DNA of 64,000 bases from an uncultured Candidatus Saccharibacteria bacterium (GCA_964654205.1 CAZZHR010000002.1:65800-129799); one strand, 5' to 3'; positions 100 through 62,710 are shown, counted from the first letter of the stretch. Notes: generated by a model not told the origin, from the sequence alone. Made by a program: numbers and translations.

Positions 100-105
100 T
101 ACAAT
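100..105 (+). promoter_or_regulatory. -10 box TACAAT, preceded by TGG, 6 nt before ATG 112 (leaderless geometry)
   Basis: The sequence reads tggTACAATccgctcATG. The same -10/N6-7/start layout recurs at many genes in this window. Confidence 0.4.
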
Positions 106-111
106 CCGCTC

Positions 112-1101
112 ATGCAATACGATGTCCTTGCCATCGGCGATCCCGTTATTGACTGCTTTATCAGACTGAAAGACGCGAAAGTCCACTGCAACATCGACAA
201 CGAGGACTGCGAGCTCTGCGTAAAATTCGGCCAAAAAATCCCCTTCGAATTCGCGGTCGAAGTGCCTGCGGTCGGCAATGCGTCGAATGCCGCTGTCGCG
301 TGCGCACGGCTCGGACTCGCATCCGCTTTCCGCGGTTCGGTGGGCGACGATGCCAACGGCCAGCTCATCATCGACACCTTCGCGAAAAACGGCGTCGCAA
401 CCGAACACATCGTGAAAGAGCCGGGCAAGGTGACGAATTACCACTACGTGCTCTGGTACGAGAGTGAGCGCACCATCCTCATCAAGCACGAGCACTTTAC
501 GTACTCGCTCCCGCAGCTCTCCGGTGCGCCGAAATGGATTTATCTCTCATCGCTCGGCGAAGGGACAGAAAAGTACCAGCACGAGATTGCTGCGTATGCG
601 CAAACGAGTGGTTCCAAACTCGCGTTCCAGCCCGGCACGTTCCAGATAAAACTCGGCGCCGACGAGCTCAAAGATATTTATGCGGCGGCAGAGATAAGCT
701 TCTGCAACAAAGAAGAGGCGCAGCAGATTTTGAAGACAGAGGAGAGCGACCTGAGAAAGCTGCTCGACGGAATGAGGAGCTTGGGTGTGAAGCAGATGGT
801 GATTACGGATGGCAGAAATGGCTCCTACGCGATGGATGAAAAGGGCTCCGCCTGGCACATACCCATGTATCCCGACCCGAAGCCGCCAGTGGAGCGCACC
901 GGCGCGGGCGATGCGACAGCCTCAACGACGGTCGCGTACCTGCTCAAAGGTCTTAGTCTCGAAGAAGCTCTCATGCGCGGGCTGATCAATTCGGCATACG
1001 TCGTGCAAGAAATAGGCGCGCAAAAAGGCCTGCTTACGCCGGAGCACATTGAGGAGCTCTACGCCGCCCGCCCCGCCGACTTTAAAGCAACGGCTCTCTA
1101 G
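112..1101 (+). CDS. PfkB-family carbohydrate/nucleoside kinase (ribokinase-like)
   Basis: 329-aa ORF. N-terminal VLAIGDPVID and GNASNAAV motifs plus the C-terminal TGAGDA anion-hole motif are typical of PfkB kinases. Confidence 0.88.
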   Translation: MQYDVLAIGDPVIDCFIRLKDAKVHCNIDNEDCELCVKFGQKIPFEFAVEVPAVGNASNAAVACARLGLASAFRGSVGDDANGQLIIDTFAKNGVATEHIVKEPGKVTNYHYVLWYESERTILIKHEHFTYSLPQLSGAPKWIYLSSLGEGTEKYQHEIAAYAQTSGSKLAFQPGTFQIKLGADELKDIYAAAEISFCNKEEAQQILKTEESDLRKLLDGMRSLGVKQMVITDGRNGSYAMDEKGSAWHIPMYPDPKPPVERTGAGDATASTTVAYLLKGLSLEEALMRGLINSAYVVQEIGAQKGLLTPEHIEELYAARPADFKATAL

Positions 1102-1117
1102 AGCCATTTTCCCAATA

Positions 1118-1145
1118 TTGACTACCCGTCTAGTCGTGGTATAAT
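1118..1145 (+). promoter_or_regulatory. sigma70-like promoter: TTGACT, 16-nt spacer, TGgTATAAT
   Basis: -35 TTGACT at 1118-1123 and an extended -10 tggTATAAT at 1137-1145, upstream of the 1171/1216 ORF. Confidence 0.55.
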
Positions 1146-1215
1146 TGCAAGAGCAGGGAGGCGTTGAACAGTGTGGTGGGTGTCACTCGATTTCTCGAAC
1201 CAACGAGGAACTGTG

Positions 1216-1869
1216 ATGCGTATCAAACTGTGGACTATCGAGGCCAGGTTCTTCCGCACCTCGATTCACATGTCTCATTTCTTTGGCGCGCTCATCTTCG
1301 CGATGATCGTGGGTCCGGGAATTGAGATGCAAAGGATCGCCGAGGCGAGAGCCGAGGCGGCCCGTGAGGCGCGACTCGTGCAACTCCGCAAGGACGAGCA
1401 CGAAATCACGTGTCTCACAAACGTTGCTCACCACGAAGCTCGTGGTGAGATGGTGGGCGTGCGCGAGCTGGTCGCAAAGACTGTGCTTGCAATCGCCGGC
1501 GACAGGATGTCGAAGCTGCCGAAGACCGTGTGCGAACTCGCCAGGGTCAAAGGCATGTTCTCGAACATCCGATACGTCGAGGAGCCGCGCTTCGCTGACG
1601 CGAAATGGGCGGCGATTCACGGGGAAATGAGCGAGGTCTACTACGGACCCCGTACACTTCCCCGCGGCTGGGGGTGCGTGCGTGGGTTCCGAGTCTCCGA
1701 CGACCAATTGGAGAAACTCGGTCCCAAGGCGCTCGCACAGCTGGGCTTCACGGTGAACGCGAAGGGATTGAAGTACTTCGCGGCACACCGAGTACCCGTC
1801 GACACTCGCGGTCGCATAACGTTTTATGCACCGCGAGGCGGGTGCAGCGATCCGACTCCAACGACATAG
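1216..1869 (+). CDS. membrane-anchored protein with a SleB/Hydrolase_2-like cell-wall hydrolase domain
   Basis: The motif LTNVAHHEARGEMVGVRELVAKTVLAI resembles the SleB-family core (AR-GE...vA.Vvlnr). There is an N-terminal hydrophobic helix. ATG 1216 has GAGGA 6 nt upstream. GTG 1171, with GGGAGG upstream, is an alternative start. A promoter lies upstream and a terminator downstream. Confidence 0.55.
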   Translation: MRIKLWTIEARFFRTSIHMSHFFGALIFAMIVGPGIEMQRIAEARAEAAREARLVQLRKDEHEITCLTNVAHHEARGEMVGVRELVAKTVLAIAGDRMSKLPKTVCELARVKGMFSNIRYVEEPRFADAKWAAIHGEMSEVYYGPRTLPRGWGCVRGFRVSDDQLEKLGPKALAQLGFTVNAKGLKYFAAHRVPVDTRGRITFYAPRGGCSDPTPTT

Positions 1870-1897
1870 TTCCTCCGGCCACGTGGCCGGAATTCCT

Positions 1898-1931
1898 GAC
1901 GGCGCCCTCGTGGCGCCGTCTTCTTTTTTTT
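1898..1931 (+). terminator. rho-independent terminator
   Basis: GACGGCGCC / GGCGCCGTC 9-bp stem followed by TTCTTTTTTTT. A second palindrome, CCGGCCACGTGGCCGG, lies just upstream. Confidence 0.75.
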
Positions 1932-1958
1932 GCATCCATGCCACTCTGAACCACATCC

Positions 1959-3944: not shown

Positions 3945-3950
3945 ATTATA
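3945..3950 (-). promoter_or_regulatory. -10 box TATAAT 6 nt before ATG 3938 (leaderless geometry)
   Basis: The minus strand reads TATAATcgcgtcATG. The box overlaps the rpe stop codon. Confidence 0.4.
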
Positions 3951-4668: not shown

Positions 4669-4670
4669 TT

Positions 4671-5355: not shown

Positions 5356-5361
5356 AGTATA
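5356..5361 (-). promoter_or_regulatory. -10 box TATACT 7 nt before ATG 5348
   Basis: The minus strand reads gggTATACTtcatggtATG. Confidence 0.4.
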
Positions 5362-5885: not shown

Positions 5886-6905
5886 CTACAGTCGCTTCGC
5901 GACTTCACTCACATGCTCGACGAGCGTGTGCACATATCCCATCTCGTTGTCGTACCACGCGAGCACCTTCACGAGCGTGCCATCTACAACACGAGTCATC
6001 GAGAGGTCGGCGATAGAGCCAAATGGCAGTCCAAGGATGTCGCTCGAGACAAGCGGTTCTTCGCTCACAGCGAAGACTCGCTTCCACCTGTCGCTCTGTG
6101 CCGCTGCCTTCAGGGTGGCGTTCACTTCTTCGGCGCTCGTCGCGCGCTTGGCAACAAAAGTGACATCGACGAGAGAGCCCGCGGGTACGGGCACGCGCAC
6201 CGATACGCCGTCGAACTTTCCCGCAAGCTGCGGATATGCAAGCGCAGTCGCCTTCGCAGCACCGGTCGAGGTCGGCACCATATTGAGCGCAGCAGCACGG
6301 CTTTCGCGGAGATCTTTAGACTTGCCGCCATCTACGAGTGCCTGTGATGCGGTGTATGCGTGCGTCGTATTGAGAATCGCTCGCTCGATGCCTATCGCTT
6401 CATCCAAGATGCCCACGAGGGGTGATGCGGCGTTGGTTGTGCAGGAGGCATTCGATGAAATGTCACACGTGCCCTGGCCGGGCAGGCCGAATTTCGATTC
6501 GTTCGCCCCGATGAGTATGGTCTCAAGCCCATCGCCTTTCCCAGGTGCAGAGATGACGACTTTCTTTGCACCCGCGGTGATGTGTCCGCGCGCTTTTTCA
6601 GCATCGGTGAAGAAACCTGTCGATTCGACGACAATGTCGATGCCGAGGTCTTTCCATGGGAGTTTTTCAGGCTCTTTCTCTGCAGTTATACGCACGTTCC
6701 TCCCCCCTATCACGAGCCCGCCATCGCCCACTGCGACTTCGAATTTCGCCTTTCCATAGACAGAATCGTAGGTGAGGAGATACGCGAGGCTCTCCGCGGG
6801 GGTGAGGTCGTTGACCGCGACGAGTTCGAGGCCAGGCCTATCGTGTATCGCCCGCGCGAACCCCCTGCCAATCCTGCCAAATCCATTGATTGCAATTTTT
6901 GCCAT
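5886..6905 (-). CDS. gap: glyceraldehyde-3-phosphate dehydrogenase, type I
   Basis: MAKIAINGFGRIGR, the SNASCTTN catalytic-Cys motif and WYDNEMGY. I trimmed the 424-aa ORF to the conserved N-terminus. Confidence 0.95.
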   Translation of the reverse strand: MAKIAINGFGRIGRGFARAIHDRPGLELVAVNDLTPAESLAYLLTYDSVYGKAKFEVAVGDGGLVIGGRNVRITAEKEPEKLPWKDLGIDIVVESTGFFTDAEKARGHITAGAKKVVISAPGKGDGLETILIGANESKFGLPGQGTCDISSNASCTTNAASPLVGILDEAIGIERAILNTTHAYTASQALVDGGKSKDLRESRAAALNMVPTSTGAAKATALAYPQLAGKFDGVSVRVPVPAGSLVDVTFVAKRATSAEEVNATLKAAAQSDRWKRVFAVSEEPLVSSDILGLPFGSIADLSMTRVVDGTLVKVLAWYDNEMGYVHTLVEHVSEVAKRL

Positions 6906-6911: not shown

Positions 6912-6917
6912 AGTATA
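6912..6917 (-). promoter_or_regulatory. -10 box tggTATACT 6 nt before ATG 6905 (leaderless geometry)
   Basis: The minus strand reads gtggTATACTcgccacATG. Confidence 0.45.
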
Positions 6918-7632: not shown

Positions 7633-7649
7633 GTCTGTCAGTCTATCAT

Positions 7650-7875: not shown

Positions 7876-9141
7876 TCAATTTTCAGGTGTGGTGGTCGCT
7901 TGCTGCACTTGTTCGCTCTCTGTAGCCACTGGCTCGGTAGTTGTCGCTGGGATTTCTATCTCCGTACTTCCTGCTTCGGTATTCGTGCTTCCCATTCCAC
8001 TCTCCGTACTCCCCCCTTCGTTCCCTCCGCTCTCATTCGACGCTTCTTCATTCATACCTCCTATTTCGTCTCCTTGTTCTTCTTGGACTTCTTCTTGGGC
8101 AGGCGTGCTCGTTGCCGAAATCGTGTCGCTCGACGCTTCTTCATTCGTACTTCCTCCTTCTCCTGCTGGACTTTCAACGTTCACATTTTCACTTTCAACC
8201 TGCGGCGGAGCCGCCGGCCTCACATTCCCCGCCTCGCTCACTTCGCCACCCGGATTCGCAGCATCACCCACGAGCACGATGCGGCGCACTGTTATCACTG
8301 CACCGCCTGGGTCTGTCGCGCTGTATTCAATCGAGTGCGCAGTCGTCGTCGAGGTATCGATGCCAGTCCATGTCGCTTTCTCGACGCCGTTGATGCGCAT
8401 ATACACGCCCGCGTTGGTCTGGTATGGATCGACGAGTACCGCGCCGAGGTCTGCGTAGCTCGCACCGAGCGGAATACGCGCCGGATTGTTGCCGAGGAGC
8501 TGCAGACCTATCTTGAGCCCGCTCGCGCTCGTACTTCCTGCTTCGTTACTCGTACTTCCGTTTCCGCTTCCATCTGCGGGACCAAAGACCGCGGCCGCTG
8601 CGGCCACCTGCGGCTGGACGACAGGGGTGTAGCCGGGGAGCGTCTCGGTGCTGTCATCGAGGAATTTGCCGATAAGGCCGCCGTACGACGTCGCTACGGT
8701 GAGCTGCGTCACTGCGCTCCGCGCGTTCTCTTGTGTCTTGCTCAGCCGCGAAGCCTCGCGTTCTATCACTTGCCTGAGCTGCTGCGTCACGTACAGGCCG
8801 AGGTCGCGATACTCGCCGAGGTCTGTCTTCGAGACCTGCATCGTTACTTTTTTGATTACGTCCTTCCAGACGTACTCGTCGACATCTATCGTGTGGAATT
8901 CGTACTCTACGAAATAGTCGTTCTCGTCTTCGGTGACCGCGGTGATGACAGCACGCGGGCTGTAGCTCGAGAGGTCCTTGCCGACGAGGTAGGTGTTGTC
9001 CACGGTGAGCACTTCATGCTGCTGCGAGTAGATGGCCTCCGGATTCGTCGCCGCAAAGACCCCCGTGCCGCCTAGAATCAGGATGCCGAGTGCCACCGGC
9101 ACGGCATTGTGATACTGAAAGAAGTGAAGAAGTGGGGTCAT
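7876..9141 (-). CDS. membrane-anchored surface protein with an Ig-like (DUF5011-type) domain and an acidic low-complexity tail
   Basis: N-terminal TM (VPVALGILILGGTGVFA). The segment GNNPARIPLGASYADLGAVLVD...SIEYSATDPGG fits the DUF5011 Ig-like pattern. The C-terminal 120 aa or so are rich in E/S/T/G. Confidence 0.72.
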   Translation of the reverse strand: MTPLLHFFQYHNAVPVALGILILGGTGVFAATNPEAIYSQQHEVLTVDNTYLVGKDLSSYSPRAVITAVTEDENDYFVEYEFHTIDVDEYVWKDVIKKVTMQVSKTDLGEYRDLGLYVTQQLRQVIEREASRLSKTQENARSAVTQLTVATSYGGLIGKFLDDSTETLPGYTPVVQPQVAAAAAVFGPADGSGNGSTSNEAGSTSASGLKIGLQLLGNNPARIPLGASYADLGAVLVDPYQTNAGVYMRINGVEKATWTGIDTSTTTAHSIEYSATDPGGAVITVRRIVLVGDAANPGGEVSEAGNVRPAAPPQVESENVNVESPAGEGGSTNEEASSDTISATSTPAQEEVQEEQGDEIGGMNEEASNESGGNEGGSTESGMGSTNTEAGSTEIEIPATTTEPVATESEQVQQATTTPEN

Positions 9142-9175
9142 AGGTGAGAGGTTAGAGTTGATAGTTTTTAGTTGA
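9141..9175 (+). repeat. direct repeat copy 1: TAGGTGAGAGGTTAGAGTTGATAGTTTTTAGTTGA
   Basis: About 29/35 identical to the copy at 9532-9566. It spans the stop codon and 3' end of the four-helix-bundle gene. Confidence 0.8.
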
Positions 9176-9598
9176 TAAGGGTGTACGCAACTTCCCGATA
9201 ATCGCCGTAAGCATTCGCTGTACTTCGTCGAGCAATTCGATGGATTTGGAGAAATCTATACTGGGAAAGAGCCGTTGCGCCGCGAGAAGCTGTGTTTCCA
9301 GCTCCGCGGCTGAACCAGCCGAGACGCATAAGAATTGCGCGTAATCCTTCCTTGTCCCCCTCTTTGTACCCTCGGCTATGTTTGAGGGGATTGATATTGC
9401 GGCGCGCCGCATCTGGCTCATCAGACCAAACTGCTCCGACTGTGGGAGTTTCGCGGTATCGCGGTACATCGTTTCGACAAGACTCATAGCCCTCTGCCAC
9501 ACGACCAAATCCTTGAAAGACCGCACAGGGGTAGGTGCGAGGTTAGAGTTTTTAGTTTTTAGGTTTGAGCTGTGTGTCGTTTTCATATTTCTTTTCAC
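9152..9598 (-). CDS. four-helix-bundle protein of the 23S rRNA intervening-sequence (S23-IVS) family
   Basis: FKDLVVWQRAMSLVETMY, SQMRRAAISIPSNIAEG and SAGSAAELETQLLAA are hallmark motifs. The start is GTG 9598 or ATG 9586. Confidence 0.85.
   Translation of the reverse strand: MKRNMKTTHSSNLKTKNSNLAPTPVRSFKDLVVWQRAMSLVETMYRDTAKLPQSEQFGLMSQMRRAAISIPSNIAEGTKRGTRKDYAQFLCVSAGSAAELETQLLAAQRLFPSIDFSKSIELLDEVQRMLTAIIGKLRTPLSTKNYQL
9532..9566 (+). repeat. direct repeat copy 2: TAGGTGCGAGGTTAGAGTTTTTAGTTTTTAGGTTT
   Basis: Lies in the 5' codons of the four-helix-bundle gene, 391 bp from copy 1. Confidence 0.8.
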
Positions 9599-9601
9599 TA
9601 A

Positions 9602-52529: not shown

Positions 52530-53687
52530 TCAGCGTGCCGTGAGAATGTCCTCATACAATGTGATGAATGAATTCACCACGTTCGTAAGCTGGAACTGTT
52601 TAGACCTCTCATATGCAGACTTGGCCATTTTATTCCGCAGATCAAGGTTCACTAGAAGTTCCCGAATTTTCTCAGAGAATGCGTCTTCGTCACTCGGATC
52701 GACGAGGAAACCCGTAATCCCATCTTGCACCAATTCCGAGCAACCCCCCACATCGGTGGACACAATAGGAAGGCCGAAGTGCATGGCTTCGATGAAGACG
52801 TTGGGGAATCCCTCTTCGAGAGACGCAGACACGTAGAGCGCGGCGCCTTGAAACTGCGCATACACGTCTGCTGACGATAGGCGTCCTGTAAACGTGACCG
52901 GCACTCGGAGCCGCTTTGCTTCTGACTCGGATTCCTCGCGGATCCTGTCCTGGCCGTCACCGATGAGCACGAGATGTGCATGGGGGGTTTTCGCCTTGGC
53001 GAACGCACGGATTATCGTCGGTATTCTTTTGTGCGGAATGAACCGATTCGCTGACACGACGACAGGCTTGCTATCGTGAGTGAATGTCTTGTACCCGCCG
53101 CCCTCGATGTCGAGCGCATTTGGAATGATTCGGATACTCGCATCCTCGCCTGCTATCGCGCGAATGTTCTTCGCACGGAACTGTGAGGGTGCCCACACCA
53201 CAGAAAAAAGCAGAAGGCCGTGGCGTTCTATCCAAGTCAGGAACCTCGAAAAAACCGAGAAAGAGTAGGTGCCGCCGAAGTCACGGCTTTTTACGTCACT
53301 CGTTGCGTATGTTTCCCACACCCAGTCGCCTGCGAACTTTATGATACTGGGCATGCCTGCGATTTTCGCAAAAAGGCCTGCCACGAATGACAGTGCGCTC
53401 ACGCTGTGCGCATGTAGGATGTCCGGTCGCTCACGCACGATGACCCATGCCAGACATGCAGAACCGACGAGCCAGCGGATGGGCTTATCGAGCGGCGTGC
53501 GAGTGTAGCGCCAACGGTATCGGTACACCGTGTATCCGTCTGGATTCGACAACTCAAAGCGATCCCCTACAGTGACAACAACGGGTGTTACGCCCCTATC
53601 ATTGAGTACACGGCAAAGGTGCCACGACTGCGTTGCGGGCCCTCCTATCATGGGTGGGAAAATGGGCGCGTACATCAAGACTTTCAT
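52530..53687 (-). CDS. GT4-family glycosyltransferase
   Basis: ASLEEGFPNVFIEAMHFGLPIVSTDVGGCSELV. TAGTAT lies 6 nt upstream of the ATG. Confidence 0.9.
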   Translation of the reverse strand: MKVLMYAPIFPPMIGGPATQSWHLCRVLNDRGVTPVVVTVGDRFELSNPDGYTVYRYRWRYTRTPLDKPIRWLVGSACLAWVIVRERPDILHAHSVSALSFVAGLFAKIAGMPSIIKFAGDWVWETYATSDVKSRDFGGTYSFSVFSRFLTWIERHGLLLFSVVWAPSQFRAKNIRAIAGEDASIRIIPNALDIEGGGYKTFTHDSKPVVVSANRFIPHKRIPTIIRAFAKAKTPHAHLVLIGDGQDRIREESESEAKRLRVPVTFTGRLSSADVYAQFQGAALYVSASLEEGFPNVFIEAMHFGLPIVSTDVGGCSELVQDGITGFLVDPSDEDAFSEKIRELLVNLDLRNKMAKSAYERSKQFQLTNVVNSFITLYEDILTAR

Positions 53688-53693
53688 ATCTCG

Positions 53694-53699
53694 ATACTA
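53694..53699 (-). promoter_or_regulatory. -10 box TAGTAT 6 nt before ATG 53687
   Basis: The minus strand reads TAGTATcgagatATG. Confidence 0.4.
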
Positions 53700-53762
53700 T
53701 ACATGCCTCCTCGCCCGCTCATTGTCCCATTCGTCCGACTGTCACCAGCGACCCGAGCTACG

Positions 53763-54818
53763 CTAGCCACGTTTGGTGGCAAATTTTACCTTTTTGAAGT
53801 ACGCCTGCTGAAGGTCGAGTTGCATCTTCTCAAAGGTGCCCGGCGGCAAAGCTTTAGTCGCAGCAATAATACGACGGATACCCTCCTCCAAGGAGACCTC
53901 TGGCGTGAATCCGAGTACTTTCTTTACTTTCTTCATATCTGCAAGCAGTCGGTACGCATAGATCTGAATAGGGACATTTACACGCACGGGCTTCGGAGTC
54001 TTGACTCCGAGCTGCTTAGCAATGATAGCAAGTACGTCATTGAACGTGTGCTCAATGCCGAAGCCAAGGTTCAGTTCGCAGGTCGGGATATTCTTTTCCA
54101 TCGCCATAATGAAAGCGCGGGCTACGTCGTCGACATAGATGAAATCACGCGTCTGCTTGCCGTCGCCCCATATGACCGGCTTCTGTCCGCCCATGAGCGC
54201 CCACGTAAGGAGCGACGTGATGTTGGCATACCCCAGCTTCGTATGCTCTCCGACTCCGTAGACGGAGAATGGTCGGAAGGCGATGCATTTGAAACCCCAC
54301 CTGTTGCTATAGCGCCTTGCTTCAAGTTCGCACCAATGTTTCGAGCCTGCTTTACTGTCGGGCGGATCGATGGGCATGTCCTCGCGAAATGGCACGCGCG
54401 GCGGCTTGTTCCATTCCTCATAGACGGCGGACGTGGATGCCCATACTATCTTTCTTTTCCCATGCTTGCGCATCGCCTCAAGGATTGTCTTGAACCCGCG
54501 CATCGTAAAGTCGCAGGACTCTACGTCGTTCTCTTCGTACATGATGAACGACGACGGCGCAGCGAGATGGATGATATGGTCTGCTTTTGAGACCAAGTCC
54601 GAAACGAGCTTGTAGTCACGGACGTCGCCCTCTTTCCAGGCTATGTGCGGGGAATTGAGTATTTGGTCGCGATTCGAGAACCGGAAATTATCGAGCGCCG
54701 TGACCCGGTATCCCTTTTCGATAAGTTGCCTCACGAGAGAGCGCCCGATAAAACCTGCTGCGCCTGTCACGAATACGTTTTCACGCAGACCAGACTTTTT
54801 TCGAAACTGTTTTTTCAT
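53763..54818 (-). CDS. NAD-dependent nucleotide-sugar epimerase/dehydratase (SDR)
   Basis: VFVTGAAGFIGRSLV Rossmann motif. Trimmed to MKKQFRKK. Confidence 0.88.
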   Translation of the reverse strand: MKKQFRKKSGLRENVFVTGAAGFIGRSLVRQLIEKGYRVTALDNFRFSNRDQILNSPHIAWKEGDVRDYKLVSDLVSKADHIIHLAAPSSFIMYEENDVESCDFTMRGFKTILEAMRKHGKRKIVWASTSAVYEEWNKPPRVPFREDMPIDPPDSKAGSKHWCELEARRYSNRWGFKCIAFRPFSVYGVGEHTKLGYANITSLLTWALMGGQKPVIWGDGKQTRDFIYVDDVARAFIMAMEKNIPTCELNLGFGIEHTFNDVLAIIAKQLGVKTPKPVRVNVPIQIYAYRLLADMKKVKKVLGFTPEVSLEEGIRRIIAATKALPPGTFEKMQLDLQQAYFKKVKFATKRG

Positions 54819-54850
54819 ATGGCGAGGATAGTACCATGGCGGCACTCAAA

Positions 54851-54878
54851 GTAAAACGGGGCGCGAGGGCGCCCCGTT
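54851..54878 (-). terminator. rho-independent terminator: AACGGGGCGC/GCGCCCCGTT, then TTTTAC
   Basis: A 10-bp GC-rich stem and a 4-nt loop, with a T-tract on the minus strand. Confidence 0.7.
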
Positions 54879-54901
54879 CCAATCTTGGGCAGGCGGGAAC
54901 G

Positions 54902-55123
54902 CTACCGCGTTGGCGGACCCGCGAGAAGATAGGGACTCCTCAGAATGAGCTCGGTGATGATGAGAGACGACTGAATCCAGGCGATGGCAATGGTAGCCGG
55001 CGCAAGCGTCAGCATTGCGTACTCCTTCATTCCGAACTCGTTTCCTTGGAGAGGAGAGACAAATGGGAACATTACAGCTCCCTCCTTTCCTACCCAATCA
55101 AACACCCATATCGGTGTTCTCAC
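54902..55123 (-). CDS. possible small membrane protein
   Basis: GTG start. One hydrophobic helix (AMLTLAPATIAIAWIQSSLIITELIL). It sits between the GT stop and the terminator, but there is no family motif. Confidence 0.3.
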   Translation of the reverse strand: MRTPIWVFDWVGKEGAVMFPFVSPLQGNEFGMKEYAMLTLAPATIAIAWIQSSLIITELILRSPYLLAGPPTR

Positions 55124-55130
55124 CAGCGAG

Positions 55131-56354
55131 TTATCCCCTGTTCGTCAGTGGGTCGAAAACCTCCCTTTTCATGCGCTCTGCTATCAGACCCCAGTCGTAC
55201 CGCTCCGCCGCAAGCTCCCTGGCGTTCTTTACGATGCGTGCGGTGAGCGACGGCTCACCCATGTAGCGCCGCACAGCTTTAGCGACTGATTCCGGATTGC
55301 TGACTTCGCAGAAGATGCCTGTCGGTTCCATGTCGGGATTTCTCTCCGGGTCGAAAAGAAAATCTGGTATGCCGCCGACCGGAGTCGCCACCACGGGAAT
55401 GCCCGCAGCGAACGCTTCAACAAACGCATTGCCAAAACCCTCGATAAGCGATGGTCGCACAAAAATGTCGCACATTTTGTAGTACGCCGGCAATTCGTCG
55501 TGACCGATGTGCCCCGCAAAAATTACGCGCCCCCGCACGCCAGATTCCTGCGCTATGCGCTCGAGCTTGGCTTCGTCTTCTCCAGAGCCGGCAATGAGCA
55601 GCTTTACATTCTCGGGCAGGTGCGCGAGCGAGCGAATCGTGTCCTCGACACCGCGCGAGAGTACGAGGCGCGATGCGGTGAAGAGGAATACGTCACCCAT
55701 TTTTTTGTCGTACTTTTCCTTCAACGTGAGGAGTTCATCTTCCGGTATCACACGAGAAAACTTCGCCACGTCGACTGCGTTGGGAATCACTGCTACGTGC
55801 CCCTTGTACCCTATGTTCCGCACCTCCCGCTCCAGAAAATGCGATATAACCTTGATGCGGTCGGCTCTATGGTAGACACGTTTGTACAGCCACCACAGCA
55901 CATAGAGAATCGGTCGACGCTTCGGCATGTCGCTAAACGCTCGGCCGTCCTGTAGCTCAAGCACATACGGCGTCTTGGGGTGCAGATAATTGAAGATCAT
56001 GCCCGCGAAACCCGCCTGGTTCGCCATCATCGACCAGACCGTGTCGTACACATACTTCTGGTCGAGCATCATCGCTTTCACAAATGCCGTAAAAGGGAAC
56101 AGTAGCTTGGCGAACTTGAGAGTAAGCGGCATCATGCGATCCGACACCTTTGGATTTGCAGCAGACGGGCCGATGCGGTGAATCGTTATGTTGCCCCGCC
56201 TCTCGACTTTCGGCAGGGCTCTGTCGAAGCGGAGCGTCACCATGTGAAATTCATACTCGCTGGAATCAATGCGGTCGGTAATTTCTTTTATCGCCACCTC
56301 CGCGCCGCCAACGAAGGGATGGTAAGTGAGCGAGATAATCAGAACGCGTCTCAT
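55131..56354 (-). CDS. GT4-family glycosyltransferase
   Basis: RPSLIEGFGNAFVEAFAAGIPVVATPVGGIPDFL. Confidence 0.9.
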   Translation of the reverse strand: MRRVLIISLTYHPFVGGAEVAIKEITDRIDSSEYEFHMVTLRFDRALPKVERRGNITIHRIGPSAANPKVSDRMMPLTLKFAKLLFPFTAFVKAMMLDQKYVYDTVWSMMANQAGFAGMIFNYLHPKTPYVLELQDGRAFSDMPKRRPILYVLWWLYKRVYHRADRIKVISHFLEREVRNIGYKGHVAVIPNAVDVAKFSRVIPEDELLTLKEKYDKKMGDVFLFTASRLVLSRGVEDTIRSLAHLPENVKLLIAGSGEDEAKLERIAQESGVRGRVIFAGHIGHDELPAYYKMCDIFVRPSLIEGFGNAFVEAFAAGIPVVATPVGGIPDFLFDPERNPDMEPTGIFCEVSNPESVAKAVRRYMGEPSLTARIVKNARELAAERYDWGLIAERMKREVFDPLTNRG

Positions 56355-57238
56355 GCCTTCTGTGCCTTTAGTGAATCTATATACTGTTTTACCGTCATCT
56401 GCGGCTTCCAGCCGAATTCCTTTTCCACTCGTGTCGTATCGACGATCGAGTCCATGCGGTTCCCCTTCCGCTCCGGCAGCATGACGATGTTGTCAGTAAA
56501 CATCTTCGCGATATCGAGCACCGTGTGCGATTCAGGACTTCCGAGACCGTACTCATCGCCCTGCCCTTTCTCCCCCACATCGACGAGGCCGCGCGCGATG
56601 TCGCCGGCAAAGGTAAAGTTGCGCTTCTGCGTACCAGGTGAGACCACGGTGATGGGCTCGCCTTTCCAGTACTGCGTCTTGAAACGTCCGATGACGCTCG
56701 CATACGGGCCTTCCGCGAGCTCTTGTTTTCCGTACGCATTGTAGAAATACGTGATGGCGTACGGCATGCTGAACCATGTGCCGTAGTTGCGCACGAGTTC
56801 GGTATTGCTCGCCTTCATCCACGCGTAGGGCGATTGGTCGCGCCCCATGCCGCCATCTGAGAACTTGGTCGACGAACCGGCATACACGATTTTGCACTTC
56901 TGGCCAGATAGATTGCGCTTGCGCCAATACTCGAAGACGCGGAACGTGCCGTGGACGTTGCTCTCCCACACGAGCGGCAAGTCGTCGAAGCTTTGTTCGA
57001 CGCGCGAGTACTCGCCGAGATGGAAAATGATAGCGGGGTTTTCTTTGCCGAGAAGCTGTTCGATGTCTTTCGTATGTCCCTCTACGTACTCCGCTCCCGC
57101 GAAATGATTGTCCTTGCTGCCGATGAAGTAATTGTCGAGCGATACCACCCGATACCCCTTTTCGAGGAGCATCTCGATAAGGTGTGAACCAATCAGACCG
57201 GCGCCACCTGTCACAATGACCGTTTTTTTCTCACTCAT
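56351..57238 (-). CDS. NAD-dependent nucleotide-sugar dehydratase/decarboxylase (SDR; UDP-glucuronate decarboxylase / dTDP-glucose dehydratase-like)
   Basis: VIVTGGAGLIGSHLIE and YAWMK (YxxxK). 4-nt overlap with the downstream GT. Confidence 0.88.
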   Translation of the reverse strand: MSEKKTVIVTGGAGLIGSHLIEMLLEKGYRVVSLDNYFIGSKDNHFAGAEYVEGHTKDIEQLLGKENPAIIFHLGEYSRVEQSFDDLPLVWESNVHGTFRVFEYWRKRNLSGQKCKIVYAGSSTKFSDGGMGRDQSPYAWMKASNTELVRNYGTWFSMPYAITYFYNAYGKQELAEGPYASVIGRFKTQYWKGEPITVVSPGTQKRNFTFAGDIARGLVDVGEKGQGDEYGLGSPESHTVLDIAKMFTDNIVMLPERKGNRMDSIVDTTRVEKEFGWKPQMTVKQYIDSLKAQKA

Positions 57239-57272
57239 GTGTTGAAGCGTACAGTGTGTCGTTACAAAAGCA

Positions 57273-57300
57273 AAGTCGCCGTTTTCTCAAACGGCGACTT
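57273..57300 (-). terminator. hairpin terminator: AAGTCGCCGTT/AACGGCGACTT
   Basis: An 11-bp stem and a 6-nt loop. The minus strand continues GCTTTTGTAAC. Outer GTTAC/GTAAC bases extend the stem. Confidence 0.62.
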
Positions 57301-57370
57301 GTAACATGTGTCGTTCACTGGCCGCGGAGCTTGCGAATCTCGTCGGAAGTAAGCCCGAGGTCGCTCGGCG

Positions 57371-57868
57371 TCACCACGCCGCTCGCGAGCACATCGTTGC
57401 GTAGGTGGTCGAGCGCATGATCGGGCTCGGCCCAGACTCGCTCGCGGTGATGCGAACGAACTCCATAGCATGCGCAATCACCGCTGCGCGAAAATACGCG
57501 TCCACGACCTGCTTGGGCATGCCGATGTCAGCGTAGCTCAGGCCTTTCCGCAGTAGATCGTCGAGTTCGCGCCGCCCATGATGCGGATATTCGCCCGGAA
57601 GGGTCTGCCACCGATAGATGCAGTAGCGTACGCTGAAGATGTTCGCGCGCTTGCGAGCGCTCTTCAGCATCGTCTGCGTCACCCTGGTGCCGTCACCGAG
57701 GGTTACGACATGACCGTCCTCGATGAGCCGCGAGAAATCTTCGATGAAGTCGGGCATCTTCAGTGTAAACCAGTTCGACCTCTCCGTTGGCCAGAACCCT
57801 TCGCCGGTCGAAAGGAGCTCTTCGAGCTCTTTCGTGTTGTGTCGTGGTCGCAGTTTGGTGACGCTCAT
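57371..57868 (-). CDS. hypothetical protein
   Basis: 165 aa. GGGAGG SD 5 nt upstream of the ATG and a terminator downstream. No recognisable motif. Confidence 0.5.
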   Translation of the reverse strand: MSVTKLRPRHNTKELEELLSTGEGFWPTERSNWFTLKMPDFIEDFSRLIEDGHVVTLGDGTRVTQTMLKSARKRANIFSVRYCIYRWQTLPGEYPHHGRRELDDLLRKGLSYADIGMPKQVVDAYFRAAVIAHAMEFVRITASESGPSPIMRSTTYATMCSRAAW

Positions 57869-57927
57869 CTGCGCCTCCCGGTTGCCAATACTCCTACCAT
57901 TATACCACGAATGCCAGACTCAAGCAA

Positions 57928-59136
57928 CTACACCGTATCCTCAACGATGCCCCACTCGCCCTGCCGCTTCCGGCGCACCGCCATCACAGCGCCACCAGTG
58001 AGGAGCGCGAGTGCGACGGGAGCAAACCACCACATGCTCATGCCGAACGATGCGCTTGCGGCAGCGACGGTAGGACGCACCACATCCGTGGCCGATTCTG
58101 GTACCACCTCCACCGCTTCAGTTTCCTCGTCGGGGGCAGCGGGAGAGAGTTGCACGGACGCGCGAGATGCGGGCTTAGGCGCTACACTCGACTGCACCGC
58201 TTGGAATTCGCTCGGCGAGGGCGCTGACGCTGGCGCACTCTGTGTGGGCGCATCACCCGCTTTCATCGCGAGTACGCCGTTGGGGTACGCGAGCTCCGCC
58301 TCCGCTCCTGCAAAAAAGCCGAGTGTTTTCGGAGATACCCGCATCGACGAGCCGGCAAGAATGAAGGAGTTGTCGGGCAGAAGAAATTCGCGCATGAATG
58401 CGCGAATAATCCATGAGGATAGGTCGAGATCTCGATCTGCATGGTTCTCGATTATCACGCTTCCGTCGGACTCAGCGCGAAACGCCAGCCGCGCTGGTTC
58501 TGCTGTGACGACGATACGGTCGCTTGCGGACTCAATGTCCTTAGCAACGGAGAGCACGACGACGTATTTCCCAGGGTACTCATAGTGGTGCGTCACGGTC
58601 GCACCTTCTGCCGTACCCCCATCGCCGAAGTTCCAGTTGAACCGCACATTGTCGAGGGGCTCCTTCTTCTTATTGTAGGCGCGTGCGCGATACGTCGTGT
58701 GCGCACCGACGATGACGACTCTGTCCTCGCCCGCGTCGACGAAGACTGAGGGGTCTGGCGGCGCTACGTATGACGAGACGGGTGCAATCTGCTGTGTCGT
58801 CGCTGTGGTCTGGGTATTCGTCGACTGAGTAGTGGTCGTGCTGGTGTCGGTTCCCGATGTTGTCTGTGCTTGTGATGATCCTCCTGGAGCTTCGCCGACG
58901 GTGATGAGATGTTTAAAATTGTCGAAAGTCGACGGTCCGATGCCATTGACATTGATGATGTCCTCAATTGTCGCGAAGGGGCCGTTCGTCGTCCTGTAAT
59001 CGATTATTCTCTGGGCCAAGGTAGGCCCAATGCCCGGGAGAGTATCGAGCGTTGCGAGGTCCGCCGTGTTGATATTGATGAGCGCATGCGCCGGGAGCGG
59101 CGCAAGAAGCAATATGAGTGCGACAAGCCATCGCAT
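57928..59136 (-). CDS. comEA: ComEA-like DNA receptor: signal peptide, tandem helix-hairpin-helix, Thr-rich linker, PKD domain, lamin-tail-like domain, C-terminal TM
   Basis: INTADLATLDTLPGIGPTLAQRII...NVNGIGPSTF (HhH). FNWNFGDGGTAEGATVTHHYEYPGKYVV (PKD). SVIIENHADRDLDLSSWII (LTD-like). WWFAPVALALLTGGAVMAV (TM). Confidence 0.8.
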   Translation of the reverse strand: MRWLVALILLLAPLPAHALININTADLATLDTLPGIGPTLAQRIIDYRTTNGPFATIEDIINVNGIGPSTFDNFKHLITVGEAPGGSSQAQTTSGTDTSTTTTQSTNTQTTATTQQIAPVSSYVAPPDPSVFVDAGEDRVVIVGAHTTYRARAYNKKKEPLDNVRFNWNFGDGGTAEGATVTHHYEYPGKYVVVLSVAKDIESASDRIVVTAEPARLAFRAESDGSVIIENHADRDLDLSSWIIRAFMREFLLPDNSFILAGSSMRVSPKTLGFFAGAEAELAYPNGVLAMKAGDAPTQSAPASAPSPSEFQAVQSSVAPKPASRASVQLSPAAPDEETEAVEVVPESATDVVRPTVAAASASFGMSMWWFAPVALALLTGGAVMAVRRKRQGEWGIVEDTV

Positions 59137-59143
59137 GCACGGT

Positions 59144-59149
59144 ATTATG
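59144..59149 (-). promoter_or_regulatory. -10 box CATAAT 7 nt before ATG 59136
   Basis: The minus strand reads cgCATAATaccgtgcATG. Confidence 0.4.
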
Positions 59150-59198
59150 CGACACGAATCAATGAGAGAGTGTTTGACTATTGAATCGCTGTGGATTC

Positions 59199-61079
59199 TC
59201 AGTTAACACCCTTGTCCTTTGTATCGCCGCCGTTGACGACGCGCTGGAGCACTTGGTTGGATACTTCAGGATTCGCTTGTGACCGCTCCCCGGCGTGATT
59301 CTGTTGCATCTCTGTAGGCTTTTGATGCGGCGTCGCATGGCGAGGACCGCCCTGAGACTTATCAAAGCGTTGCTCACCCCGGCCATGATTGTGGTGCGGC
59401 TGGTGGTCGCGCGACTGCTGTTTATGCGCCTGCTTATCGCGCAATAGCTCGAGCGGCGAGCGAGCGGGTGCTTGAGCTGATGAAATACCCTCGGCACGTG
59501 CCTTTTCTATCGCGTCGCGAAGAGAGTTCCGTCCCGCCTCGGCGCGAGGTTGGGTTGTCACCTGCTCGCGCCGCGGCTCCACCCTGGCAATGGTCGGCTG
59601 CAGTACGGGCGCAGGCGCAGGTGACGGGCGCGACTCGCGCAATCTCTCTGCCGGAGAGATGCTCGGGGGAGGTGTAAAGCCACCATTCGGCCGATAGTCG
59701 CGCCGTTCTTTTTTTTCTTTTGGCGGCGGGATGAACTCTTCTTGCTTAGATTTTATGAGCTCCTCTATCTTCGCCCTTGGTACGCCGAAGGCGTGTCGCG
59801 ACGACATGATGACATCGTCGCGGTATGTGATGTTGGGCGGCTCAATAGGCGGTATGGTCTCTGCCGAAAAGGGCGGCGAACCCACACCATCTATCATGAG
59901 CGTGAGGTAAATCTGCCCGAGGCCGAGATTCACGAGGTCCTCCGGTTCGAACGTGGGCTGGAAGACAGTCTCGAGAACTTCCGCGTCGAATGGACCCACC
60001 CGGAAGACAATGAGCGTGCCGACGTTGCCGAAGACCGCGTCGCGGACTTCCTCTTCCATCTGCTCGATGTACTGGTTGGCCAGCGTGAGCGCGAGCTTGT
60101 ACTTGCGGGATTCTGAGAGAATATCGGCGAATGCCTCGTTCATCATCGACTGGAATTCGTCGACATAAAAGTAGAAGCGAGGCAGTTTCGCAAGACGCAT
60201 CGGCGGTTCGTCTGCACGCGACATCGCAGCAAGGTAAATCTTGACGGTGAGCGCCGAGCCGAGGAGAGAGGCGTTCGTCTCGCCCATGCGTCCTTTTGAG
60301 AGATTGACGATGAAGATTTTCTTCTCATCCATCACTTTGCGCAAATCGAAGGAAGATTTTGCCTGGCCTACAATGTTGCGAATGAGAGGGTTTGAGACGA
60401 ATTGGCCGATTTTGTTCTGGATTGCCGGCAGAGCTTCGCGTGTGTATGTGTCGGTAAAATTCGCAAATTCCTCCACCCAGAACGCTTTGACGATAGGGTC
60501 TGAAACCTTTTCAAGCACCGCATTGCGATACGTTTTGTTGATGAGCATGCGGTTCACGTCGAGCAGCGTCGAGCCTGGATACTCGAGGAGTGCGAGCAGA
60601 GTGTTTTGCAAGATATACTCCATGCGGGCGCTCCACGCGTCCACCCAGATGCGTTTGAGTGCCCCCATGAGACCGGAGACGACGAGGTGCCGCTTGTCAT
60701 ACCCCACGTCCTCCATCACGTTGAATCCAAGGGGGTATTCGGTATCAAACGGCGCGAAGTAGATGACATCACTGATACGCTCCTGCGGGATGAAATCGAG
60801 GAGCTTTTCGGCGGTCGAGCCGTGGGGGTCGATAAAGGCGATGCCTTCCCCATTTTGAATATCCTGAATCGCCATGTTCTCGAGCATGGTCGATTTGCCC
60901 ATGCCGGTCTTGCCGATAACATAGATATGCTTTCCGCGGTCTATCGCGCGGATACCGAACATTTCCCTCTTTCCCCGCGTGTGCGTCGATGCGAAGTAGG
61001 TGATTCGCCTATCGTCGTCGAACTGGTCAGGGTGGGGCTTGTGCTCGCCTGAAGCGTGACTGTCGTGGTGCTCAGACAT
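59199..61079 (-). CDS. soluble VirD4/TraD/TraG-like (type IV coupling protein-like) P-loop ATPase with a disordered His/Gln-rich C-terminus
   Basis: Walker A VIGKTGMGKST, Walker B FYFYVDEFQ, then LANQY...VGTLIVFRV. No N-terminal TM. The last 190 aa or so are low complexity. Confidence 0.78.
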   Translation of the reverse strand: MSEHHDSHASGEHKPHPDQFDDDRRITYFASTHTRGKREMFGIRAIDRGKHIYVIGKTGMGKSTMLENMAIQDIQNGEGIAFIDPHGSTAEKLLDFIPQERISDVIYFAPFDTEYPLGFNVMEDVGYDKRHLVVSGLMGALKRIWVDAWSARMEYILQNTLLALLEYPGSTLLDVNRMLINKTYRNAVLEKVSDPIVKAFWVEEFANFTDTYTREALPAIQNKIGQFVSNPLIRNIVGQAKSSFDLRKVMDEKKIFIVNLSKGRMGETNASLLGSALTVKIYLAAMSRADEPPMRLAKLPRFYFYVDEFQSMMNEAFADILSESRKYKLALTLANQYIEQMEEEVRDAVFGNVGTLIVFRVGPFDAEVLETVFQPTFEPEDLVNLGLGQIYLTLMIDGVGSPPFSAETIPPIEPPNITYRDDVIMSSRHAFGVPRAKIEELIKSKQEEFIPPPKEKKERRDYRPNGGFTPPPSISPAERLRESRPSPAPAPVLQPTIARVEPRREQVTTQPRAEAGRNSLRDAIEKARAEGISSAQAPARSPLELLRDKQAHKQQSRDHQPHHNHGRGEQRFDKSQGGPRHATPHQKPTEMQQNHAGERSQANPEVSNQVLQRVVNGGDTKDKGVN

Positions 61080-61085
61080 ACGGGA

Positions 61086-61091
61086 AGTATA
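61086..61091 (-). promoter_or_regulatory. -10 box TATACT 6 nt before ATG 61079 (leaderless geometry)
   Basis: The minus strand reads ggggTATACTtcccgtATG. The box lies inside the left arm of the 17-bp inverted repeat. Confidence 0.45.
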
Positions 61092-61194
61092 CCCCGTGAG
61101 ATAGGCGCTCCTCCGGTCTTTAATGCAAATTGGAGCAAAGCAGGATCGACCATGTTTCTAGGCTCACCCCGCACGCATATCTCACGGGGTATAC
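61087..61194. repeat. perfect 17-bp inverted repeat: GTATACCCCGTGAGATA (61087-61103) / TATCTCACGGGGTATAC (61178-61194), 74-nt spacer
   Basis: Read directly. The arms are exact reverse complements. Confidence 0.9.
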
Positions 61195-61195
61195 C

Positions 61196-61222
61196 AAGAA
61201 GCGTCCCTCAGGGACGCTTCTT
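61196..61222 (-). terminator. hairpin at the 3' end of the hydrolase gene: AAGAAGCGTCCC/GGGACGCTTCTT
   Basis: A 12-bp stem and a 3-nt loop that overlap the TAA stop. No clear T-tract. Confidence 0.45.
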
Positions 61223-62489
61223 ATTGCGCCGAGAGCGCCTGTTTCAAGCTGCTGTATCGATTCGCGGGATCCCAGAAGTACCACGAGGTGAGCCCTGCGT
61301 CGTACGTTGCGCGTGTCTGGTCGAGGATGTCTTGCGCGGTATACGTCTTGCCGTAATTAAAATCCTGCAGCCACGGGCGCAGCATCTTGGGGTCATACAC
61401 CGGTTTCTCGTACACTGCCGGCGTCGACGTGCCGATACGCGTAAAGGCGAGCGACGGGACGGTCGTCGTGGGCGCTTTGAGTCGCCGCACCGCTTCGGCC
61501 ATGGATTGGTACACGACTTTGTACGGGTCACTGTTCGGGTCACTCAGTCCTGCAAAGCCCTTGTTGTAGTGCGATGGGTACACCATGGGCGCGATGTAGT
61601 CGAAATATGGAAGCGCGCGCTCGAGCTGTTGGCCGATACCGAGGTCGTCGGTGAGCACGGTCGTGTAGCCAAAGAGGTCTGCGCTCATGACCGGCACGTG
61701 GCCGCCGTGGTGCGCCGTATCAAATCCCTTTACTTGCTTGTGGAGATACGAGAAGAATTTCTCCAGCTCGCCTGCCCGGTCTGTCGAGGGATAGACGATG
61801 TCGCTCATGACGCCGTCGGATGGCCAACGGACGTAATCGTAATTCAGTTCGTCGAAGCCGAGCTCGTAGCTCTCTCGGCTAAGCTCCACAATGTAGTCCC
61901 AGTGCGGCTCCGAATTGACCGCGATAAATGAGAGGCCCTTGTGGTCTTTCCATGGCTCACCGGGCCGCGCCTTCGACTGCACCGCTCGCTCAGGATGCAC
62001 CTTCGACATGAAGGGGTCTTGGAACACCGTGATGCGTCCTATCACGTAGATTCCTTTTTCATGGAGCGTCGCGATGAACTCGCGCATATCGCCCGCTCCG
62101 CACTTGGCGGCATCCCACGCTGGTTTCAATTCCTCACTCTCGGGCTTGAACGCGATGGTACCTGAGTAATCTTTTATATCGATAACGACCGCGTTGAGCT
62201 TCGTCGAGTCCAAGAGTTCTACAAGGGTGTTGCGGAGCGAGGGCGTCCCCACGGCGCACTGCGTCATGTATATCGCGTACATGGGCTCCGGCGCGGCCAC
62301 GTGACTTACGCGCGCCTTCGGAGCCTCGGGAATCACCACCTTCGGCGTACTGGTCGCACCAGCGCGGATAAATTCTGCCGACGGATTAGAGAGAGAAATG
62401 AACACGCCCGCCGCAACGACGGCGGGTGCCGCGATGCCGAGGAAAACGACGCCTATCCTCGACGCGCTCGTTCGTTTAGAGCTGGACAT
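61221..62489 (-). CDS. putative glycoside hydrolase, GHL10/DUF4015-type TIM barrel, signal-anchored
   Basis: LNAVVIDIKDYSG, VIGRITVFQD and GFDELNYDYVRWPSDG fit the DUF4015 pattern. N-terminal TM. Trimmed to MSSSKRT. Confidence 0.7.
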   Translation of the reverse strand: MSSSKRTSASRIGVVFLGIAAPAVVAAGVFISLSNPSAEFIRAGATSTPKVVIPEAPKARVSHVAAPEPMYAIYMTQCAVGTPSLRNTLVELLDSTKLNAVVIDIKDYSGTIAFKPESEELKPAWDAAKCGAGDMREFIATLHEKGIYVIGRITVFQDPFMSKVHPERAVQSKARPGEPWKDHKGLSFIAVNSEPHWDYIVELSRESYELGFDELNYDYVRWPSDGVMSDIVYPSTDRAGELEKFFSYLHKQVKGFDTAHHGGHVPVMSADLFGYTTVLTDDLGIGQQLERALPYFDYIAPMVYPSHYNKGFAGLSDPNSDPYKVVYQSMAEAVRRLKAPTTTVPSLAFTRIGTSTPAVYEKPVYDPKMLRPWLQDFNYGKTYTAQDILDQTRATYDAGLTSWYFWDPANRYSSLKQALSAQ

Positions 62490-62697
62490 GCTCGTGACGC
62501 GGTTGCGAGACGTTCTCGGTTTCTGGTCGGCGCGGATTCTCAATGTGGCCGTACCTCCTGCGCACTACGATGCCGAGCGCGATGACGAAAACGCCAACAG
62601 CAAAGAAAATCCACGTGTCCCAGGTGTTGGGAAAGCCCAAAAAAGGAAGTGCTGCGACGAGGACGCCGGAGAGCATGATGAGCGCATCGAGTGTCAT
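62476..62697 (-). CDS. small two-TM membrane protein
   Basis: MTLDALIMLSGVLVAALPFLGF...IFFAVGVFVIALGIVV. ATG 62697 has TATACT 7 nt upstream. ATG 62724, with an AGGAG SD, is the alternative start. Confidence 0.5.
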   Translation of the reverse strand: MTLDALIMLSGVLVAALPFLGFPNTWDTWIFFAVGVFVIALGIVVRRRYGHIENPRRPETENVSQPRHEHVQL

Positions 62698-62704
62698 GTG
62701 GCCT

Positions 62705-62710
62705 AGTATA
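62705..62710 (-). promoter_or_regulatory. -10 box TATACT 7 nt before ATG 62697
   Basis: The minus strand reads TATACTaggccacATG. Confidence 0.4.

Follow-up and report, generated by a model that had tools for sequence, protein, structure and literature searches.

Many genes in the window, by which we mean the whole 64-kb stretch of DNA from an uncultured bacterium deposited as Candidatus Saccharibacteria (GCA_964654205.1, CAZZHR010000002.1:65800-129799), carry a TAnnnT hexamer at a short and nearly fixed distance before the start codon. An earlier note on this DNA read 19 such hexamers as −10 boxes lying 6–7 nucleotides (nt) upstream of the start, with no Shine–Dalgarno (SD) sequence in between, and proposed that the corresponding mRNAs are leaderless. 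Here we report that these boxes are very probably promoter −10 elements abutting start codons, in a leaderless architecture. The same architecture recurs in related genomes, where SD signals are essentially absent. The leaderless-mRNA interpretation is supported by the geometry of the boxes, their upstream TGn extension, the distal placement of the same box at SD-led genes, its absence from genes coupled to an upstream gene, terminators immediately upstream of several boxes, and conservation in related loci.

The −10 element canonically occupies positions −12 to −7 relative to the transcription start (+1), and a hexamer at a 6-nt spacing occupies exactly −12 to −7 relative to the A of the ATG. 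From this geometry we infer that transcription would start at the A of the ATG and that translation would be independent of an SD sequence; the mRNAs of the box-adjacent genes probably begin at AUG. In the mechanism that we propose, the boxes would belong to housekeeping (sigma-70-type) promoters of the extended −10 kind, RNA polymerase would initiate at or within 1–3 nt of the AUG to produce leaderless mRNAs, and ribosomes would decode these mRNAs from the 5′-terminal AUG without an SD interaction.

Position and promoter features of the boxes

The spacing between hexamer and start codon is sharply non-random. Counted on both strands and independently of any assigned start, the pattern TA[TCG][AT][AC]T-N(d)-ATG occurs 10 times at d = 6 and 10 times at d = 7, against a dinucleotide-shuffle expectation of 2.2–2.6 ± 1.5 per spacing; the other observed spacings between 0 and 20 give 1–6. 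Under an a priori rule that takes the first ATG of each of 52 open reading frames (ORFs), picked only by codon-usage score, TAnnnT is found 10, 3, 5 and 3 times at d = 6, 7, 8 and 9, against ~0.4 expected per position, and d = 6 and 7 together account for 13 of the 52 ORFs against 0.76 expected (Poisson p = 2.4e-12). The positional enrichment relative to start codons that the earlier note had named as a check is present, as a sharp d = 6–7 peak, in the window and in related loci. For most of the boxes claimed earlier, the adjacent ATG is the first ATG of its ORF. In the hexamer, A2 and T6 are invariant, with A at position 4.

All 19 hexamers listed earlier were recovered before an ATG or GTG, 11 of them 6 nt and the other eight 7 nt away, and TATACT is indeed the commonest (6/19). 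The TAnnnT pattern attributed to all of them holds strictly in 15; the other four are near-consensus only. The list was also incomplete: further boxes lie at 6–7 nt before ATG 62 (minus strand), 54818, 57238 and 63549, and at 8–9 nt before 51423, 52515, 24196, 27151 and 31686. SD sequences are absent at the box-adjacent starts, where the 6–7-nt spacer leaves no room for one. Near such starts there is a single SD-like 4-mer, a GGAG at 16 nt from ATG 3938; the box lies between the two, which puts the GGAG outside the predicted transcript.

The genes of the window fall into three classes of expression signal. About 23 genes have a box at 6–7 nt and five more at 8–9 nt, together around half of ~56 genes, and box-adjacent starts make up ~60–70% of the genes without coupling to a gene upstream. 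Fourteen coupled genes have neither box nor SD and overlap or abut the upstream stop codon by −4 to +3 nt (one has a 68-nt overlap that depends on the choice of start). They include ATGA overlaps, for example at 14239–14242, 33624–33627, 43416–43419, 47790–47793, 48416–48419, 49441–49444 and 56351–56354, and junctions with a 1–3-nt gap (TAA/TAG-N(1–3)-ATG) at 3099, 4668, 5126, 5884, 10112 and 44942; judging from this gene geometry, the coupled genes are presumably translated by termination–reinitiation. Some six genes are SD-led (GGAGG-type) on leadered transcripts. Among the SD-led genes named earlier, the signal is clear at 57868 and 63872 and weaker at 41330 and 38977, and further clear GGAGG/AGGAG sequences precede 1171 and 55072. 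The coexistence of leaderless and SD-led modes in one organism, as proposed in the earlier note, is supported, and start/stop coupling without SD adds a third mode. These class counts leave out 9500, 14901, 21349, 32560, 36605 and the methyltransferase at ~38865/38895.

Several features point to the boxes being promoter elements. A TGn extension, the hallmark of extended −10 promoters, lies upstream of 11 of 29 boxes (38%), compared with 5.2% of all TAnnnT in the window, and the box consensus is approximately T-G-n-T-A-t-A-(a/c)-T, without a conserved −35 element. A full-consensus box also occurs 25, 30 and 45 nt upstream of three genes with clear GGAGG-type SD sequences (1171, 57868 and 63872). 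On the plus strand, the box TGGTATAAT at 1140–1145, in a perfect TTGACT-16-TATAAT arrangement found at this one of the three genes, is followed 25 nt on by a GGAGG-led start (GTG 1171 or ATG 1216). On the minus strand, TGGTATAAT recurs at 57899–57904, 30 nt before ATG 57868, with GGGAGG 5 nt before the ATG, and TGCTATAAT at 63918–63923 lies 45 nt before ATG 63872, with GAGGAG 9 nt before the ATG. The good TGnTAtAaT matches in the window all lie at one of two distances, 6–9 nt upstream of a start or 25–45 nt upstream of an SD-led one; the other matches fall within genes and have poor hexamers.

The distribution of the box among genes points in the same direction. Whereas 26 of the 40 uncoupled genes carry the strict box, none of the 14 coupled genes does (Fisher p = 1.5e-5). 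Were the box a ribosome-binding motif, it would be expected ahead of internal genes too, and its absence from the coupled ones therefore argues against that role. Furthermore, strong intrinsic terminators with 8–13-bp GC-rich stems followed by T-runs end ~10–25 nt upstream of the boxes of 40822, 42286, 57238 and 63549, so that these four genes need promoters of their own and have no room for an SD-bearing leader.

Conservation in related loci

The window is ~56% G+C and densely coding. Its GAPDH gene (5886–6905, minus strand) has its nearest matches in Candidatus Kaiserbacteria and other Paceibacteria/Parcubacteria metagenome-assembled genomes (MAGs), with 77% identity to Kaiserbacteria RIFCSPHIGHO2_01_FULL_53_29; in NCBI taxonomy, Kaiserbacteria belong to the Parcubacteria group of the Patescibacteria. 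Judged by these matches, the source organism is a Kaiserbacteria-like, ultrasmall member of the Parcubacteria/Paceibacteria, within the candidate phyla radiation (CPR). Many of the compared loci carry the automated third-party annotation (TPA) label "Candidatus Saccharibacteria" yet group with Paceibacteria by GAPDH, and where we speak of a clade, we mean the relatives that GAPDH similarity brought up. The MAG GCA_964594735.1 (locus L085, CAZQMS010000002.1) is a close relative, and Logan contigs from SRR15237804 and SRR15237806 hold near-identical pieces of the window. A tRNA scan and an Rfam scan of the 64 kb gave no match, and the 3′ end of 16S rRNA is absent from the window and from all compared loci.

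GAPDH similarity retrieved 80 loci, of which 64 Patescibacteria loci were usable for the GAPDH (gap) gene start, together with 11 outgroup loci (ten non-CPR and one Curtissbacteria). In 54 of the 64 Patescibacteria loci a TAnnnT lies 5–9 nt before the gap ATG, in 26 of them at exactly 6 nt, and these boxes are mostly TATAAT, TACAAT or TATACT; an SD sequence was found at the gap start in only one of the 64 (L064). The outgroup shows the reverse, with a box in 0 of 11 loci and an AGGAG-type SD in 8 of 11. The box is likewise present at the orthologues of other genes: in 30 of 40 loci for the PfkB kinase (TAnnnT at 6–9 nt, often as TGnTAnAAT-N6-ATG), in 30 of 48 for the transketolase N-terminal subunit and in 11 of 16 for the gene starting at 24196. 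RpiB and the transketolase C-terminal subunit are mostly stop/start-coupled in the related loci.

An aggregate profile over all long ORFs shows a sharp d = 6 peak in every G+C class of the related loci, whereas the outgroup profile is flat. The d = 6 count is 97 versus ~10–20 in related loci below 40% G+C, and 31 versus ~3 in those with at least 48%. In the Patescibacteria loci the profile of SD 4-mers is without a positional peak, whereas in the outgroup they peak at 8–10 nt and in the one sheep-gut Saccharibacteria locus at 4–6 nt.

The comparison with L085 resolves the signal at individual genes. The type IV secretion system (T4SS) coupling-protein gene keeps TATACT at 6 nt with a changed spacer. 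The ComEA gene of L085 has GATAAT where the window has CATAAT, both at 7 nt, again with a changed spacer, and the epimerase gene keeps TACGCT at 7 nt while six of the seven spacer bases differ. Box and spacing are thus retained while the spacer diverges, which argues for selection on the box and on its distance from the ATG.

Alternative readings and individual sites

Some observations weigh against this interpretation. Four of the 19 hexamers depart from strict TAnnnT (36639, CATACT; 46656, GATAAT; 59144, CATAAT; 45937, TATACA), and the boxes at 8–9 nt would give 1–3-nt leaders and not strictly leaderless mRNAs. At six of the starts (7632, 28422, 30854, 31746, 42286 and 62697) the ORF has an earlier start codon, and the choice was made by means of the pattern itself. 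At 62697, favoured on this ground in the earlier note, the public gene call instead gives 82 amino acids (aa) from ATG 62724, although the AGGAG of that ATG is only 3 nt away. The start at 31746 is a GTG, a poor leaderless start in Escherichia coli, yet one that is used in mycobacteria. Finally, TTGACA-like −35 sequences at 16–18 nt average 2.6 of 6 matches, as against 2.4 at random positions, and a scan of the window for classical −35/−10 two-hexamer promoters showed no enrichment over shuffles. On these scans and the direct −35 test we rejected canonical two-hexamer sigma-70 promoters, an arrangement that fits only 1118–1145 and 46685–46656; the lack of a conserved −35 and of enrichment in the scans fits −35-independent extended −10 promoters.

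The other starts that the pattern had selected vary in their support. For 28422 a public gene call gives the same start, with a product of 211 aa, and 42286 is favoured over the alternative ATG 42256, which lies inside the U-tract of the terminator at 42221–42257. With 30854 as the start, a 65-nt overlap with the preceding gene is avoided. GTG 31746 is consistent with the start of the Pfam domain, placing the GT2 domain at residue 5, and for 7632 two public calls conflict (171 versus 185 aa). Exact-protein look-ups of the start variants 30854/30932 and 42286/42256 returned no record. Public gene calls agree for the GAPDH, 72-aa, 211-aa, 241-aa and 402-aa products.

A different function for the hexamer, as a non-SD ribosome-binding or translation-enhancer motif within a longer 5′ untranslated region, as in Bacteroidetes, would account for its fixed short distance to the start codon and for the near absence of SD signals in related loci, and would suit the report that part of the Parcubacteria has no anti-SD motif (PMC9297842). 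We nevertheless consider it very unlikely. The hexamer matches the sigma-70 −10 consensus and carries TGn seven times above background, the same box lies 25–45 nt upstream of SD-led genes, and four boxes directly follow strong terminators, so that no upstream transcript would carry them. Bacteroidetes-type motifs, moreover, precede internal operon genes too (PMC6028130), but the box occurs at 0 of 14 coupled genes. That the boxes are real promoters with short leaders, translation starting from a downstream in-frame codon and not from the box-adjacent ATG, is to us equally hard to credit, if anything a shade more so. Further in-frame ATGs do occur near a few starts (for example 5339, 35046 and 53675), and the start calls for 7632 and 62697 are ambiguous, but the GAPDH sequence MAKIAINGFGR begins at the box-adjacent ATG and its orthologues align from residue 1–3 of that start, Pfam domains begin 3–14 residues after box-adjacent starts, and this explanation gives no account of a sharp 6-nt spacing to the ATG conserved over dozens of genomes.

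We give almost no credence to a chance or compositional artefact, in which A/T-rich gene starts, or upstream TAA/TAG stop codons supplying TA at −12, would generate the pattern. It is true that two boxes share bases with an upstream stop codon and that another four come within 2–5 nt after one, but most are in divergent or 40–250-nt intergenic regions, and stop codons fail to explain the invariant A2 and T6 and the A at position 4. Both d = 6 and d = 7 have 10 occurrences where shuffles give ~2.4, the other in-frame spacings (d = 0, 3, 9 and 12) are without a peak, and so are the outgroup loci. Promoter −10 elements that abut the start codon are thus the reading that we retain.

For the individual sites, coordinates give the hexamer, named by its first base on the plus strand and by its lowest coordinate, the 3′ T, on the minus strand. 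On the plus strand, TACAAT (100–105, preceded by TGG) lies 6 nt before ATG 112 of the PfkB-family kinase, TATAAT (31734–31739) 6 nt before GTG 31746 of a GT2 glycosyltransferase, and the near-consensus TGGCATACT (36639–36644) 6 nt before ATG 36651 of a polysaccharide biosynthesis protein. TATACT (40810–40815), 6 nt before ATG 40822 of a cytidylyltransferase, and TACTAT (42273–42278), 7 nt before ATG 42286 of a GT4 glycosyltransferase, each have a terminator just upstream (40764–40794 and 42221–42257).

The other listed boxes are on the minus strand. In the metabolic region, TATAAT (3945–3950), 6 nt before ATG 3938 of the transketolase N-terminal subunit, contains the TAA stop of the upstream gene; TATACT (5356–5361, preceded by GGG) lies 7 nt before ATG 5348 of a 72-aa protein for which the public call gives the same product; and TGGTATACT (6912–6917) lies 6 nt before ATG 6905 of GAPDH. 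TGATAGACT (7640–7645) is 7 nt before ATG 7632 of a 171-aa protein with the signal-peptide-like start MRRVLFCILLL. Further along, TATACT (22689–22694) lies 6 nt before ATG 22682 of an HTH_17 protein, TACAAT (28429–28434) 6 nt before ATG 28422 of a protein with a PaaX_M/Cas2-like domain, and TAGACT (35062–35067) 6 nt before ATG 35055 of an SMR-like membrane protein. TGATAGAAT (30862–30867), 7 nt before ATG 30854 of an O-antigen ligase/TPR protein, includes a TGA that is the stop of the upstream gene. TATACA (45937–45942), 6 nt before ATG 45930 of an epimerase, is the weakest site, with a strict TACTAT at 9 nt. The near-consensus GATAAT (46656–46661), 6 nt before ATG 46649, has TTGACC 18 nt upstream and overlaps the upstream TGA stop. 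TAGTAT (53694–53699) lies 6 nt before ATG 53687 of a GT4 glycosyltransferase, the near-consensus CATAAT (59144–59149) 7 nt before ATG 59136 of a ComEA-like protein, GGGTATACT (61086–61091) 6 nt before ATG 61079 of the T4SS coupling-protein-like gene, and TATACT (62705–62710) 7 nt before ATG 62697.

The added boxes for which we give positions are on the minus strand as well. TATACT (70–75) lies 7 nt before ATG 62 of a divergent gene leaving the left edge of the window, and TATCCT (54825–54830) is 6 nt before ATG 54818, with TGGTACTAT at 9 nt. TACGCT (57246–57251), 7 nt before ATG 57238 of an epimerase, follows a terminator at 57263–57300, and TGGTAGGGT (63556–63561), 6 nt before ATG 63549 of a TP_methylase, follows a 13-bp terminator at 63572–63611. 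At 8 nt are TGCTAGTAT (51432–51437), before ATG 51423, a near-leaderless arrangement identical in L085, and TGATACTCT (52524–52529), before ATG 52515.

The earlier suggestion that several boxes lie within the 3′ end of the preceding gene holds in part: the boxes at 3945–3950 and 46656–46661 overlap the upstream stop codon, whereas four others follow it, in 13–18-nt gaps, so that the remainder of each promoter falls within the coding sequence upstream. The majority are divergent or intergenic. A full-consensus TGGTATACT box at 32452–32457 (plus strand) falls within the final codons of the GT2 gene, 102 nt before ATG 32560, and may belong to a leadered transcript without SD or to an unannotated small feature in 32460–32559. 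A TAACCT before ATG 9141 was dropped as a box, as it belongs to a 31-nt repeat flanking the neighbouring gene. That gene, of the 23S_rRNA_IVP family (four-helix bundle; ~9152–9598, minus strand), is bracketed by ~31-nt direct repeats (9141–9171 and 9532–9562, 90% identical), with an inverted copy at 9597–9620, and the repeat supplies the sequence directly upstream of ATG 9141. The region 9127–9620 thus resembles a small repeat-flanked cassette.

The window encodes a pentose-phosphate/glycolysis cluster (PfkB kinase, split transketolase, RpiB and GAPDH), two giant surface proteins, a long glycosyltransferase/polysaccharide cluster, and the ComEA-like and T4SS coupling-protein-like proteins. The transketolase is split into an N-terminal gene (3938–3102) and a C-terminal gene (3099–2092), both on the minus strand with a 2-nt gap between them, and the PfkB/transketolase/RpiB/GAPDH cluster is syntenic in many related loci. 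Comparison of L085 with window positions 52000–64000 shows a common block of methylase, 82-aa protein, DUF4015, T4SS coupling protein and ComEA. Gene content in the glycosyltransferase region differs, the 165-aa gene at 57868, for example, having no equivalent in L085, which indicates that the polysaccharide cluster may vary at the strain level. A 19-nt G+C-rich palindrome, TGCAAGGGGCGCCCTTGCA, is present in three copies (0.01 expected) at 14163–14204 and 14735–14753, inside the 5′ parts of the adjacent genes for a 1375-aa protein (start 14242) and a 220-aa protein (start 14901). The PaaX_M/Cas2-like protein of 211 aa (27787–28422, minus strand) is solitary; neither a CRISPR array nor further cas genes were noticed, in passing, in its neighbourhood.

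Leaderless initiation in known systems

We lean slightly towards regarding leaderless initiation together with stop/start coupling, with almost no SD, as the default architecture of a large part of the Parcubacteria/Paceibacteria. In the survey of Tsurumaki et al. (2022), an anti-SD motif was detected in no more than 48% of Parcubacteria and bS21 was often absent; the authors made no statement on how translation would then start (PMC9297842). If true across the clade, the architecture would offer an mRNA-side explanation for the undetectable anti-SD in about half of the Parcubacteria and for the missing bS21 (PMC9297842), and a dominance of leaderless mRNAs would explain how cells lacking both still initiate translation. 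Dozens of related CPR genomes show the same signal, which has a bearing on the reduction of their translation apparatus.

There are also practical consequences. Start prediction in metagenome-assembled CPR genomes relies mostly on tools that expect a ribosome-binding site; using the −10 box as a start marker would improve the prediction of N termini, for which calls differ or conflict for at least two genes in the window (7632 and 62697). For genetics in uncultured or newly cultured relatives, the results suggest a promoter of consensus TGnTAtAaT without a −35 element, fused 6 nt from the ATG. A full-text literature search combining leaderless mRNA with Patescibacteria, CPR, Parcubacteria or Saccharibacteria, which did not extend to the GeneMarkS-2 supplementary genome lists or to TM7x RNA sequencing, returned no report linking them; the matches were incidental mentions or concerned "leaderless secretion/bacteriocins".

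The closest known counterpart is group C of GeneMarkS-2, in which SD-led genes coexist with first-in-operon genes that have a Pribnow box 6–8 nt from their start; this group covers 90% of Actinobacteria and 97% of Deinococcus–Thermus, and was validated by differential RNA sequencing (dRNA-seq) in Mycobacterium tuberculosis and Deinococcus deserti (PMC6028130). Like the window, its representatives (M. tuberculosis, Streptomyces, Corynebacterium and D. deserti) combine TAnnnT at 6–8 nt and no SD at those starts with SD sequences elsewhere in the genome. The −35 element of group C promoters is weak or absent. The window differs in lineage, being CPR/Parcubacteria and known here from sequence alone, whereas the group C examples are Actinobacteria and Deinococcus–Thermus. 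Among its uncoupled genes, the share with box-adjacent starts is towards the top of the range, and in related loci the SD signal, far from being co-dominant, is practically absent.

Extended −10 (TGn) sigma-70 promoters share with the boxes a TG one base upstream of the hexamer and the dispensability of a conserved −35, although TGn is not universal in the window, where many boxes have GGG, GGC or nTG instead. The 14 genes at an upstream stop, with neither SD nor box, resemble termination–reinitiation coupling of the ATGA or TAAnATG type. Bacteroidetes-type group B also combines little use of SD with a short A/T-rich motif, located ~10 nt before starts; the motif of the window, in contrast, is a −10 consensus with TGn, is confined to genes that could be transcribed from a promoter of their own, and is also present at a long distance before SD-led genes. 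The mechanism is thus already known in other bacteria, and what is new, by the literature found, is its probable occurrence in a CPR lineage.

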